Source: Nitrospinales bacterium
GTDB taxonomy: Bacteria > Nitrospinota_A > UBA7883 > JACRGQ01
Length of the DNA: 64,000 nt
NCBI GenBank assembly: GCA_023248495.1
Contig: JAHFEK010000007.1
Location: 4,770-68,769, forward strand
Direction of reading: 5' to 3'
How positions within the stretch are numbered: position 1 is the stretch's first letter; each line of letters begins with the position of its first letter. The notes beneath the pieces are model-generated. The model worked only from the letters and a program-made list of their open reading frames with translations, was not told the DNA's origin and did not search any database. Made by a program: the position numbers and the translations under genes. This document shows, piece after piece, positions 23,089 to 64,000 of the stretch.

Positions 23089-24528
23089 ATGGCCACTCTT
23101 GAGATTAACCGCATCGGGCAAAATTTGTGGGAGATACCGGTCCGCGCCAAAAAAGGGATGAACGTGCCGGCCCGCATCTACACTTCGGCGGCGATGCTCC
23201 CAACCATAGACGACGCGGCGCTGGAGCAGGTATCGAACGCGGCAATGCTTCCCGGCGTGGTGCTCCACACGCTGGCGATGCCGGATATCCACTCCGGCTA
23301 CGGCCTGCCGATAGGCGGGGTGATGGCGACCGACCCGGCGACGGGCGTCGTTTCCCCCGGCGCGGCAGGGTACGACATCAATTGCGGCGTGCGGCTGATG
23401 AAGACCCCATTTGTGAAAGAACAGATACTGCCGATGCGCGAGACGCTGGCCGACCTGATGGCCGCCCGCATACCGTGCGGCGTCGGCCGCGGCGGGCTGA
23501 TCGAGCTCTCCGACGCCGATTACCGCGCCATCGCCGGGAAGGGGGCGGCGTGGGCGGTGTATCGCGGATTTGGCTTGGGTGATGATCTTGTCCACACCGA
23601 ATCGGGCGGGGCGCTGGAAGGGGCCGATCTGGAGGGGGTGAGCGGCCACGCGAAAAAACGCGGGCGCGATGAGATGGGGACGCTCGGCGGCGGCAACCAC
23701 TTCGTCGAAATCCAATATATCGATCAAGTCTACAATCCCGAAATCGCCGCCGCATGGGGGCTGAGCGAAGGGCAAATCACGGTGATGATACACACCGGCT
23801 CGCGCGGATTCGGCCATCAGGTGGCCACCGACCACTTGAAATCAATGGAGCACTCCATGCGGAAATACGGTATCAGCGTCCCGGACAGGGAGCTTGCCTG
23901 CGTGCCGGTTGACAGCGGCGAGGGGCGCGAATACCTCGGCGCGATGCGGACGGCCGCCAACTACGCCTGGACCAACCGGCAGGTCATCATGCACCTCGCG
24001 CGCGAAGTCCTTTCCGCGGCGATGAAGACCGCGCCGGAATCCATGCCGCTGCTCTACGACGTGGCGCATAACATCATCAAGCTGGAAGAGCACACCGTCG
24101 AGGGGAGGAAACGGAAGGTAATGGTGCATCGAAAAGGGGCCACTCGCGCACTCGGCATCGGACACCTCGAATTGCCCGAAGCTTTCAAAAGCACCGGGCA
24201 ACCAGTGCTGGTGCCGGGTGATATGGGACGGATGTCCTACCTGCTGGCGGGAACGCAGACCGCGATGGAGCAGACCTTCGGCAGCAGTTGTCACGGAGCG
24301 GGGCGCGCCCTGAGCCGCCATGCCGCCTCCAAAAAAGCGCGTGGCCGAAATTTGCTTACCGAAATGTCCGATCAGGGGGTGGCAGTGCGCTCCACAGGGA
24401 GGCATACGCTGGCAGAAGAGATGCCGGAGGCTTACAAAAATGTTTCGCAGGTGGTGGATGTGGTCACCGCCGCCGGTCTGGCCCTGCCGGTTGCCCGCCT
24501 GCGGCCAATAGCCGTTATAAAGGGGTAA
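23089..24528 (+). CDS. rtcB: RNA-splicing/repair ligase RtcB
   Basis: MPDIHSGYGLPIGG, GYDINCGVR, GTLGGGNHFVE, HTGSRG, HGAGR, AEEMPEAYK. Confidence 0.96.
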   Translation: MATLEINRIGQNLWEIPVRAKKGMNVPARIYTSAAMLPTIDDAALEQVSNAAMLPGVVLHTLAMPDIHSGYGLPIGGVMATDPATGVVSPGAAGYDINCGVRLMKTPFVKEQILPMRETLADLMAARIPCGVGRGGLIELSDADYRAIAGKGAAWAVYRGFGLGDDLVHTESGGALEGADLEGVSGHAKKRGRDEMGTLGGGNHFVEIQYIDQVYNPEIAAAWGLSEGQITVMIHTGSRGFGHQVATDHLKSMEHSMRKYGISVPDRELACVPVDSGEGREYLGAMRTAANYAWTNRQVIMHLAREVLSAAMKTAPESMPLLYDVAHNIIKLEEHTVEGRKRKVMVHRKGATRALGIGHLELPEAFKSTGQPVLVPGDMGRMSYLLAGTQTAMEQTFGSSCHGAGRALSRHAASKKARGRNLLTEMSDQGVAVRSTGRHTLAEEMPEAYKNVSQVVDVVTAAGLALPVARLRPIAVIKG

Positions 24529-24544
24529 TTGATTCCATTATTGA

Positions 24545-24572
24545 CCAAAAAGCCGGGTCATCCATCCGGCTT
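24545..24572 (-). terminator. Terminator-like hairpin between rtcB and the micropeptide locus
   Basis: AAGCCGG/CCGGCTT stem followed by TTTTT on the minus strand. Confidence 0.6.
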
Positions 24573-24682
24573 CGTGGATTGAGAAAGAGAAAGCTGGAAG
24601 GGTTTCCAGCTTATTGAATTGTAATACGTTTTTCGATGGCCACCGAGCGTCAGCTATGTAGCCATCGAAACGCATTTTCTTG

Positions 24683-24751
24683 CTATCTGCGCTTGCCTCT
24701 GCGCGGAGCGTGAGGCCGGGGAGCATGATGTCCACCACCACCTATTTTCAT
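24683..24751 (-). CDS. 22-aa micropeptide MKIGGGGHHAPRPHAPRRGKRR (copy 2)
   Basis: Hand-translated ATG..TAG; GGAGG about 8 nt upstream; paralog of 24793..24858. Confidence 0.7.
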   Translation of the reverse strand: MKIGGGGHHAPRPHAPRRGKRR

Positions 24752-24792
24752 TGTCGATCCCTCCAGTTCATTGTTTAATAAGGTCTTTATGG

Positions 24793-24858
24793 CTATTTCC
24801 GTTTCGATCTGTGCGGAGCATGGGGCCGGGGAGCATGACTAGCGCCACCTACTCTCAT
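24793..24858 (-). CDS. 21-aa micropeptide MRVGGASHAPRPHAPHRSKRK (copy 1)
   Basis: Hand-translated ATG..TAG; GGAGGT RBS upstream; paralog of 24683..24751. Confidence 0.7.
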   Translation of the reverse strand: MRVGGASHAPRPHAPHRSKRK

Positions 24859-24899
24859 ACCTGCTACCTCCAACTTAAATGTTTTTTCTTATGCAATCT

Positions 24900-24926
24900 A
24901 TATCGGCGGCGGTTTTACGGGACTTA
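24900..24926 (-). promoter_or_regulatory. Putative sigma28 (FliA/SigD) promoter
   Basis: TAAG-N15-GCCGATAT on the minus strand versus consensus TAAA-N15-GCCGATAA/T; about 40 nt upstream of the first micropeptide ATG. Confidence 0.7.
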
Positions 24927-24993
24927 AGGGAATAATTGAAACTATTTTGGGATGCGTACTTCAGCGGCGGGCCAAAACCGGAAGGAACCGGTG

Positions 24994-26073
24994 TTATTCC
25001 ACTGTCACGCTGATGACGCTGAGAATGCGGAGCAGCCGCTTGATAGTTTCGCTTTTCCAGGCGGAATAGCGCCGTAACGCTTCTTCGGCGTAACCGGGAC
25101 CGCCCATCAGCAGGTGTTGCCCCTGCTCTTCGCCGGAAAGCCTGACGATCTTCACCCGCAAGGTTCCTTCCTCAAAGGCCACGAAATCGCAACTGTATAA
25201 ACCTTCATTTTTAGCTTCGGCGCATATCGCGTCCGCTTCCCGCTTAACCCGGGCGGCGCGCAACACCATCATTCGGCTGTAGGCCTCGCCGCGGTGCCGA
25301 TTTACCGGGAAGCCGCGAATGAATTCACGGTACCCCTCTTCGGCGTCCCTTTTTTCATACGGTTCGTATTCCAGCCCGTCCTTCAGCGCGAGAGCTTCGG
25401 GCGCCCTTTCGCTTGCCGCATGGTCGCGTAAAAATTCGGCCCATGCGACGATGCTCTCGGCTTTTTTCACCTCATCGAATATCAGGTCTTCTATCGCCGC
25501 GGCGGCGGCCGGAACCATTGGATGCGCGGGAAATTCCTCGATGAAGAGCGTATAGCCCTCGATGCTGTTCTCGCGCGAAACCGAGTCGAAAAGCAGGTCG
25601 TCCGCCCGCCGCGCCGCTTCGGCGGCGTGACGGCTGTCCGGGTAATTGGCGATGAAGGCGGTATACGCCCTTAGGGTATTCTCCGCCCGGCACCGGCGGT
25701 AGCGGATGTCGTCGATCGTGTCCCGTGCGCGGTCGGCAAAGCGGACGCTGGAATTATCCTTGAGATACCGGTCCATAAGATTTTCCTTGCCGGTTTCCAG
25801 CGACTTTTTCCGCAATGACTCGAAAATGATTTCGCCAGGCTGGAGCGGCTCGGGGAGCGGCGGCGGGATTGCCATCGTCGGTTCGGCAAGTTGGGGCGGT
25901 TCAGGAGAAGGCTCCCCCGCGTCTGCGGGCGGAATTTCCGTGGAACCCGCAGGAGGGGAAACGGCGTCTTCCGCTTGCGCGGCGGCGCATAACATGTAAA
26001 GGACGGCGCAGGTTGCCATGGCCGTCCGGCGAAAGAAAACGGCTGCCGGTTGCATGATGGTTTGAGCGGTCAT
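24994..26073 (-). CDS. Secreted protein with 37-aa helical repeats
   Basis: Signal-like segment ending AAAQA, Pro-rich linker, four 37-aa repeats (D.L.F/Y..E.S/T.E.Y..FI..Y/FP); start uncertain. Confidence 0.75.
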   Translation of the reverse strand: MTAQTIMQPAAVFFRRTAMATCAVLYMLCAAAQAEDAVSPPAGSTEIPPADAGEPSPEPPQLAEPTMAIPPPLPEPLQPGEIIFESLRKKSLETGKENLMDRYLKDNSSVRFADRARDTIDDIRYRRCRAENTLRAYTAFIANYPDSRHAAEAARRADDLLFDSVSRENSIEGYTLFIEEFPAHPMVPAAAAAIEDLIFDEVKKAESIVAWAEFLRDHAASERAPEALALKDGLEYEPYEKRDAEEGYREFIRGFPVNRHRGEAYSRMMVLRAARVKREADAICAEAKNEGLYSCDFVAFEEGTLRVKIVRLSGEEQGQHLLMGGPGYAEEALRRYSAWKSETIKRLLRILSVISVTVE

Positions 26074-26243
26074 GCCGCGTCCGGCATACATTCCCGCCCC
26101 ACCCAATGCTCTGTAGTCACACGGCTGATTATAGTGAACCCTTCCCCCTTTTGCCACCGTCCCACCCTGTATGCACGCCAAATGCCGGTTATCCGCATTC
26201 TTTGCGCTTCCCTTTTTCCCCCGTGCAAATTAAAGTATCCACT

Positions 26244-63660: not shown

Positions 63661-64000
63661 TCAGTCCCGCAGGTCGTCGTCGGTTTGGATGTAGCGGAGC
63701 AATTTGCCGCGCAGACGCATCACGGCGCGGGTGTGAAGTTGCGAAACGCGCGATTCGGTGATGCCCAGCACTTCGCCGATTTCTTTCATGGTTAATTCTT
63801 CGTAATAGTACAGGGATACCAGCAGCCGTTCTTTTTCCGGGAGCTGGTCGATGGCGCGGCCGATGATTTCGCGCACTTCGGTCACGCGGGCCATCATCTG
63901 CGGGTCGGTGTCGGGCGATCCGGCCAGCACTTCCATGATGTCGCGCTTTTCGCCGTCTTTTCCCATGCCGCCGAGGTCTTCGATGCTCAGTAACGGCGCG
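63661..64000 (-). CDS. fliA: RNA polymerase sigma factor FliA (sigma28), 3' part; open at the window edge
   Basis: LLSIED, LPEKERLLVSLYYYEELTMKEIGEVLGITESRVSQLH. Confidence 0.93.
   Translation of the reverse strand, partial: APLLSIEDLGGMGKDGEKRDIMEVLAGSPDTDPQMMARVTEVREIIGRAIDQLPEKERLLVSLYYYEELTMKEIGEVLGITESRVSQLHTRAVMRLRGKLLRYIQTDDDLRD

Follow-up and report, generated by a model that had tools for sequence, protein, structure and literature searches.

Two tandem micropeptide genes with a sigma-28-type promoter in a Nitrospinales genome: a candidate accessory of the late flagellar programme

Can a short direct repeat between rtcB and a repeat-protein gene hold two genes for peptides of just 21 and 22 residues, and would such genes be expressed together with the late flagellar genes? 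The question arose from an earlier note on a stretch of 64,000 nucleotides (nt) of DNA from a Nitrospinales bacterium, here called the window, which corresponds to C68:4770-68769 of genome G000, a metagenome-assembled genome of 2.57 Mb with 56% G+C and 88% completeness. Comparison with related genomes made it fairly probable that the locus is a real, translated, sigma-28-driven micropeptide gene, and the family looks restricted to a small groundwater lineage, UBA7883, in which two genera carry it. The elements on which this reading is built are listed below in the order of transcription; the two open reading frames (ORFs) were determined by reading of the sequence together with the ORF listing.

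24922..24927, minus strand: -35 element TTAAGT (TAAG at 24926-24923) of the sigma-28-type promoter
24900..24907, minus strand: -10 element GCCGATAT (sigma-28 consensus GCCGATAA)
24867..24871, minus strand: Shine-Dalgarno GGAGG of ORF1, 8 nt 5' of the ATG
24793..24858, minus strand: ORF1, 21 amino acids (aa), MRVGGASHAPRPHAPHRSKRK, TAG stop
24760..24764, minus strand: Shine-Dalgarno GGAGG of ORF2, 8 nt 5' of the ATG
24683..24751, minus strand: ORF2, 22 aa, MKIGGGGHHAPRPHAPRRGKRR, TAG stop

Both ORFs are unannotated genes on the minus strand, and their coordinates, translations and TAG stops agreed with those of the earlier note. They form part of a direct repeat, previously put at about 65 bp and measured here as 64 nt, with 75% identity and a spacing of 110 nt. 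The separate GGAGG site described for each ORF was confirmed, as were the synonymous differences (CCC/CCT and CAT/CAC) in the identical HAPRPHAP core, and ORF2 contains one extra GGT codon, in frame. The gap between the ORFs is 41 nt long and holds no promoter-like element, and thus a single bicistronic mRNA, with ORF2 as the second cistron of the ORF1 transcript, is probable. The peptides follow the pattern M-K/R-V/I-G-G-x-x-H-A-P-R-P-H-A-P-R/H-R/K-x-K/R-R-K/R, carry a net charge of about +6 with three to four His and three to four Pro, and contain neither acidic nor aromatic residues; they are too short and too proline-rich to fold alone. Two antisense ORFs on the plus strand (58 aa and 32 aa) are also open, but they were rejected: they have no conserved start or Shine-Dalgarno site, and their residues vary over stretches in which the sense peptide does not change.

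The search for homologues combined a back-translated HAPRPHAP pattern with a six-frame hidden Markov model (HMM) of the peptides, and covered a phylum sample of 33 species and a comparison set of 366 genomes from other lineages. Within G000, the motif search yielded only ORF1 and ORF2, which scored 47.3 bits (E 1.2e-11) and 42.3 bits, respectively, with the HMM. The comparison proposed in the earlier note (copy number, ratio of nonsynonymous to synonymous substitutions (dN/dS), and promoter) revealed homologous ORFs in three other genomes, and the family totals six copies in four genomes, with one or two copies per genome. In the same genus, 'bacterium WY2.bin26' (G001) has one copy, MKVGGAHHAPRPHAPRKPKRK, while 'Nitrospinales bacterium nzgw266' (G003), which comes from aquifers in New Zealand and was placed in class UBA7883 of the Nitrospinota (PMC9562985), has two, MKVGGASHAPRPHAPRRPRRK and MKVGGSHRAPRPHAPRKSRRK, located 388 nt apart and each equipped with its own promoter, Shine-Dalgarno site and terminators. 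A diverged copy, MKVGGASHRPHAPRPQKPRHK, was found in G010, which belongs to a different genus of the same family, and it is preceded by its own sigma-28-type promoter. HMM scores were 41-48 bits for the genus copies (E ~1e-10 to 1e-12 per genome) and 27 bits for the G010 copy (E 1.6e-5).

The two pairs of copies are built from different units: a 110-nt repeat unit under one shared promoter in the window, and a unit of 388 nt in G003. The second G003 copy (L016:1355-2010; C26:50121-50776) is part of this 388-nt duplication, whose other contents are the promoter, the two terminator hairpins and a piece of 46 codons that resembles the convergent rubrerythrin-like gene at its 3' end.

Outside these genomes the six-frame HMM detected the peptide gene in none of the other 29 phylum genomes and in none of the 366 genomes of other lineages. 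The weaker HMM matches with short open frames (E of at least 0.003 per genome; L032, L034, L045, L033, L039, L041, L078 and L073) fell inside longer genes or a tRNA and were taken as chance; the other weak matches are located in long open frames. When the strict pattern was run on one genome per species, over 185,579 species, only G001 and G003 matched. No match was obtained in the JGI metagenome contigs, for which a looser pattern returned 24 loci, all of them chance by their translation, and of the 44 loci from a pattern scan of viral contigs none showed the N-terminal context.

The mode of divergence between the copies argues for selection on the encoded peptides. Mean pairwise identities among the four promoter-bearing copies of the genus were as follows, segment by segment.

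-35 hexamer: identity 0.78
Promoter spacer: identity 0.39
-10 octamer: identity 0.94
5' untranslated region: identity 0.46
Shine-Dalgarno site: identity 1.00
Shine-Dalgarno site to ATG: identity 0.42
ORF: identity 0.85

The neighbouring 395-aa protein is just 67-71% identical among the genus species compared, and neutral DNA is therefore strongly diverged; conservation is confined to the promoter boxes, the Shine-Dalgarno site and the ORF. Within the ORF, variable columns at codon positions 1, 2 and 3 numbered 4, 9 and 13, respectively. All four variable sites of the APRPHAP core are third positions, with a probability by chance of C(7,4)/C(21,4) = 35/5985 = 0.006. Nei-Gojobori dN/dS values ranged from 0.08 to 0.72 over ten pairs, and those against the other copies were 0.39-0.72 for ORF1 and 0.08-0.39 for ORF2. 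Each of the six copies begins with ATG and runs for 21-22 codons to a stop, and indels are in frame throughout, the length differences being the extra GGT of ORF2 and the codon-multiple indels of G010; GGAGG is present in five of them, and G010 has a weaker AAGG/GGCGG. The first eight residues, MKVGGASH, are identical in G010 and in G003a, one of the two G003 copies, although five of the eight codons differ, including that of Ser (TCC versus AGT), a pattern that would be hard to explain except by selection at the peptide level. Taken over this small sample, the substitutions point to purifying selection on the amino acid sequence. The proposal of a cationic micropeptide family under peptide-level selection is thus supported by six copies in four genomes and by their synonymous-biased substitutions.

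The sigma-28-type promoter described upstream of ORF1, TAAG-N15-GCCGATAT, is present, and its end is located 41 nt from the ATG, in agreement with the previous estimate of about 40 nt. Its -10 octamer is conserved as GCCGATAT in the window, G001 and G003a, as GCCGATAA in G003b and as GACGATAA in G010. The -35 hexamers of the genus relatives read TTCAGT, TTTAGT and TCAAGT, at a distance from the -10 octamer fixed at 14 nt, and TnnAGT is common to the genus copies; G010 has instead CTAAAG-N15 (TAAA). Measured against TAAA, the relatives show TCAG, TTAG and CAAG at the spacing of the window, and the spacing is thus fixed while the box is degenerate. No sigma-70-like promoter was found in 24300-25300. 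The same motif stands ahead of flagellar genes of G000: an intergenic TAAA-N15-GCCGATAT is located upstream of fliD (Pfam FliD_N, FliD_C), and an intergenic TAAA-N16-GCCGATAA upstream of a flgM-like gene (PF04316, E 4.6e-5, 24.0 bits, just below the cut-off of 25). The genome encodes FliA (TIGR02479, 270 bits versus a cut-off of 189.6) at C68:68469-69143 on the minus strand; fliA had been described as lying in the window, which holds for its 3' end, the last ~300 nt (63700-64000), while the rest of the gene runs past the window end. The conserved -10 element and the motif shared with fliD and the flgM-like gene support the claim of sigma-28-type promoter drive, and from them we infer that the micropeptide promoter depends on FliA.

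Other flagellar-type signals were observed in G000 outside the window. Sigma-28-type motifs in intergenic regions at C74:7447 (TCAAGT-N13-GCCGATAA) and C51:10737 (TAAAGT-N13-GCCGATAT), both on the minus strand, precede proteins of 71 aa and 188 aa without a Pfam match, which may be further members of the late flagellar regulon. Upstream of fliD (C53:17233-17480), a forward sigma-28-type box is accompanied on the opposite strand by two tandem TCAAGTTAAA...CCGATAA boxes oriented away from fliD, an arrangement that suggests divergent late promoters. Both flagellin genes (C83:35885-36180 and C62:9785-10080) have long 5' leaders, each ending in a hairpin GGCAAGGAUGCC, with AAGGA in the loop, just ahead of the Shine-Dalgarno site CAAGGAGGA; hairpin and site resemble the paired binding sites for CsrA of flagellins under FliW-CsrA control. 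The leader at C83 also contains TTAG-N15-TCCGAAAA, a weak sigma-28-like box.

At the 3' side of the peptide unit, three hairpins precede the end of the convergent rtcB.

24631..24670, minus strand: long hairpin directly 3' of ORF2, with 18-nt arms that are 83% complementary
24582..24612, minus strand: terminator-like hairpin AAGCTGGAA-ACCC-TTCCAGCTT, followed by TCTCTTTCTC
about 24545..24572, minus strand: second terminator-like hairpin, GCCGG...CCGGC followed by TTTTT

A conserved AATTCAATAAG stands ahead of the terminator-like hairpin at 24582-24612, which is retained in G003a, G003b and G001 with changes at the top of the stem. The hairpin at 24545-24572 lies between the peptide unit and rtcB, whose end is at 24528, and it is probably bidirectional; G003a and G003b also carry a second terminator-like hairpin, despite a different convergent gene. 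The window and both G003 copies share a well-conserved 3' segment, AACGCATWGCAATTCAATAAGCTGG with its hairpin, but the 3' region is only loosely conserved in G001 and is not conserved in G010. The 40-nt near-perfect hairpin at 24631-24670 is an insertion relative to both G003 copies, which do not have it. RNA folding of the transcript indicated a stability that is not unusual (z = -1.6), and the coding part has no special structure.

The explanation that we favour can be formulated as follows. The FliA (sigma-28)-type promoter at 24927-24900 would most likely start a short mRNA near 24892, in which paralogous cistrons of 21 and then 22 codons stand in tandem, each with a strong GGAGG, and which would end at the intrinsic-terminator hairpins ahead of the convergent rtcB. 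Transcription by FliA would occur late in flagellar assembly, alongside fliD and flgM, and the peptides would then be translated and act inside the cell as extended polycationic ligands with an RPHAPR / PxxPx(R/K) core. Both genera share the invariant core R-P-H-A-P-(R/H), and within the genus it reads P-H-A-P-x-(R/K), which we take to have the form of a polyproline-II (PxxPxR) ligand. Our best guess at the mode of action, and a tentative one, is binding to a polyanionic partner within the cell; RNA, the ribosome, and an acidic protein of the flagellar or chemotaxis machinery are the candidates. The peptides would thereby serve as a lineage-specific accessory of the late flagellar programme and not as a core flagellar part.

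Several observations weigh against a translated, sigma-28-driven gene. The family is seen in only four metagenome-assembled genomes, all from uncultured bacteria, and G002 (95% complete), the fourth species in the genus, has no peptide gene, either elsewhere or at the syntenic site, where a methyltransferase gene comes immediately after the upstream gene. Of the 33 phylum genomes, 27 have flagellin and only four the peptide, indicating that the peptide is not needed for flagella and is accessory to them, not a core component. The -35 box of the window matches at only three of four positions and varies from copy to copy, and TAAR-N15-GCCGATAW occurs eight times in G000, against a mean of 3.1 at control spacings. 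One such match is therefore not rare, and the case for the promoter rests on its five conserved copies and on the flagellar company; a match in one genome would be weak evidence, which conservation across species raises above chance. With about 20 codons, the dN/dS statistics are weak, and the sample consists of six copies of ~63 nt. Codon usage is a further difficulty: GCT makes up 7% of the Ala codons in long ORFs of G000, yet it encodes every Ala of the core (HAP) in every copy, AGA, GGT and ATA in the peptide genes are also rare codons, and the core is an internal repeat (CATGCTCC twice). Such atypical usage could fit a young or foreign origin, or a constraint at the nucleotide level.

The genes on either side of the peptide unit differ between the genomes.

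Window: upstream, 395-aa repeat protein (weak YfiO/BamD-like match); downstream, rtcB
G003: upstream, 395-aa repeat protein; downstream, rubrerythrin-like gene
G001: upstream, 395-aa repeat protein
G010: upstream, GAF histidine kinase; downstream, convergent peptidoglycan transglycosylase

The convergent rtcB of the window was identified with Pfam RtcB at E 3.9e-164. A functional link of the peptides to RtcB, considered in the earlier note, finds no support, since rtcB is the downstream neighbour only in the window. The change of neighbours between genomes indicates that the peptide unit is self-contained. The 395-aa protein itself (24994-26181, minus strand) combines a hydrophobic segment at the N-terminus with some five repeats of the form Y..FI..FP......A......L.F; Pfam gave only the weak YfiO/BamD-like match (E 0.003), and outside the genus, which contains all the clear homologues, one fragment of 41% identity was seen in G009.

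If the transcript and not the peptide were the product, the locus would encode a sigma-28-dependent regulatory RNA, possibly with a dual function, in which the ORFs are incidental or secondary and base-pairing or protein binding falls to the C-rich core (a repeated CAUGCUCC) or to the conserved hairpin region at the 3' side. Sigma-28-dependent small RNAs (sRNAs) are known in E. coli (PMC10578931), and the transcript predicted here would be short, stand-alone and terminator-ended. The invariance of the rare GCT at both core Ala positions in all copies would also suit a constraint on the RNA, as would the conservation of the 3' AACGCATWGCAATTCAATAAGCTGG and hairpin between the window and G003, and the hairpin of G001, kept through changed stem bases. 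Against these points, the core varies at third codon positions only, no indel breaks the frame, and start, Shine-Dalgarno site and stop are present in each of the six copies; moreover, G010 retains the N-terminus of the peptide with five of eight codons changed, and its 3' region is not conserved, while that of G001 is so only loosely. The region has no Rfam match (a search of 24000-25500 at E up to 10 returned only a spurious miRNA match of 16 bits), and the fold, at z = -1.6, is unremarkable. An RNA function in place of the peptides is, on this balance, unlikely; a dual function would be compatible with the codon usage and the 3' conservation.

The ORFs might otherwise be young and effectively neutral, perhaps born de novo from intergenic DNA, with little or no translation and without function, their conservation reflecting limited divergence or hitch-hiking with the promoter and the terminator. 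The narrow distribution (4/33 phylum genomes, 0/366 others, and one congener that lost the gene) would be in accordance with this, together with the atypical codon usage and the low complexity of a peptide with an internal HAP(R)P repeat. Limited divergence is difficult to reconcile with a neighbouring protein at 67-71% identity and with non-coding flanks at 39-46%, compared to 85% for the ORF. In addition, the gene persists in a second genus, in another context and with its own sigma-28-type promoter, and two genomes carry two copies in pairs that are differently built. We regard neutral ORFs as rather improbable.

Still less probable is that the peptides leave the cell, through the flagellar type III gate or by another route, as a cationic proline-rich antimicrobial, a signal, or the precursor of a ribosomally synthesised and post-translationally modified peptide (RiPP). 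In size, charge and PRP motif they are reminiscent of proline-rich antimicrobial peptides (PrAMPs), and some bacterial sigma-28 regulons include non-flagellar proteins secreted through the flagellum. However, a signal peptide, a double-glycine leader of normal length and a Cys/Ser/Thr-rich core are all absent; the peptides match no Pfam, NCBIfam or PrAMP family; and no transporter, protease or modifying RiPP enzyme occurs as a conserved neighbour in the window, G003 and G010 neighbourhoods. The suggestion of a RiPP precursor in the earlier note falls with the absence of a conserved enzyme neighbour and with an ORF length of just 21 aa. The products could also be endogenous counterparts of PrAMPs, which might bind the cell's own ribosome or mRNA and re-tune translation once the flagellum is complete, or exit via the flagellar gate as a weapon or signal; this is a long shot, but if true, it would define a new class of ~21-aa bacterial effectors linked to the flagellar checkpoint. 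Leader or arrest peptides that act in cis, and whose His/Pro/Arg codons and PRP motif would control a downstream gene, would suit short Pro/Arg-rich ORFs with strong Shine-Dalgarno sites but are highly improbable, as no same-strand gene follows, three hairpins and a convergent gene stand downstream in the window, the downstream gene is different in every species, and the arrest motifs RAPP and RAGP are absent.

Database searches gave the peptides no known relatives. Three peptides had no match in Pfam and NCBIfam with E as high as 10, exact look-up of eight variants, among them longer ones with a TTG start, found none in a collection of 15 billion proteins, and a literature search with the peptide motif strings found no relevant paper. 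The family thus appears to lie outside any described one, as a small ORF-encoded protein putatively recruited to an alternative-sigma regulon.

Gene callers overlook proteins as short as about 20 residues, and functional bacterial examples that are not hydrophobic have very rarely been described. The present comparison, which relies on sequence alone, provides good evidence for a family of such genes, with a putative late flagellar sigma input, in an uncultured groundwater lineage. Should the peptides be produced and affect translation, RNA or the motor, they would represent a new kind of accessory factor in the flagellar hierarchy, as well as a compact and easily synthesised ligand for study; if they are inert, the locus would illustrate cleanly how young micro-genes are drawn into an existing regulon and undergo duplication.

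Among known systems, the arginine-rich-motif peptides (lambda N, HIV Tat) and the basic ribosomal proteins bL37 and bS22 are likewise polycationic RNA binders of ~20-30 aa, but they share no sequence similarity with the micropeptides, whose proline-rich core excludes the helical binding mode of the arginine-rich motif, and a ribosomal protein would not be expected under a sigma-28 promoter. The insect and mammalian PrAMPs (apidaecin, drosocin, oncocin and Bac7) resemble the micropeptides in their length of 18-21 aa, strong positive charge, PRP motif, lack of acidic residues and extended conformation. They are secreted host-defence peptides released from precursors, whereas the bacterial ORF, with a presumably cytoplasmic product, has no signal or pro-region and is only as long as a mature peptide, and no homology between the two is detectable. 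The E. coli sigma-28-dependent sRNAs UhpU, MotR, FliX and FlgO are comparable in that the short, stand-alone and terminator-ended transcript predicted here would also accompany the late flagellar genes; they are processed from the untranslated regions of flagellar mRNAs and act by base-pairing (PMC10578931), in contrast to the unit conserved here, an ORF with its own Shine-Dalgarno site and substitutions of the coding type. Compared with the members of the class 3 (FliA/sigma-28) flagellar regulon, the 21-22 aa product has no relative among known flagellar proteins and is missing from most flagellated members of the phylum. The micropeptide promoter reads TAAG-N15-GCCGATAT where the class 3 consensus has TAAA-N15-GCCGATAA, and the same motif precedes fliD and the flgM-like gene in a genome that encodes FliA.

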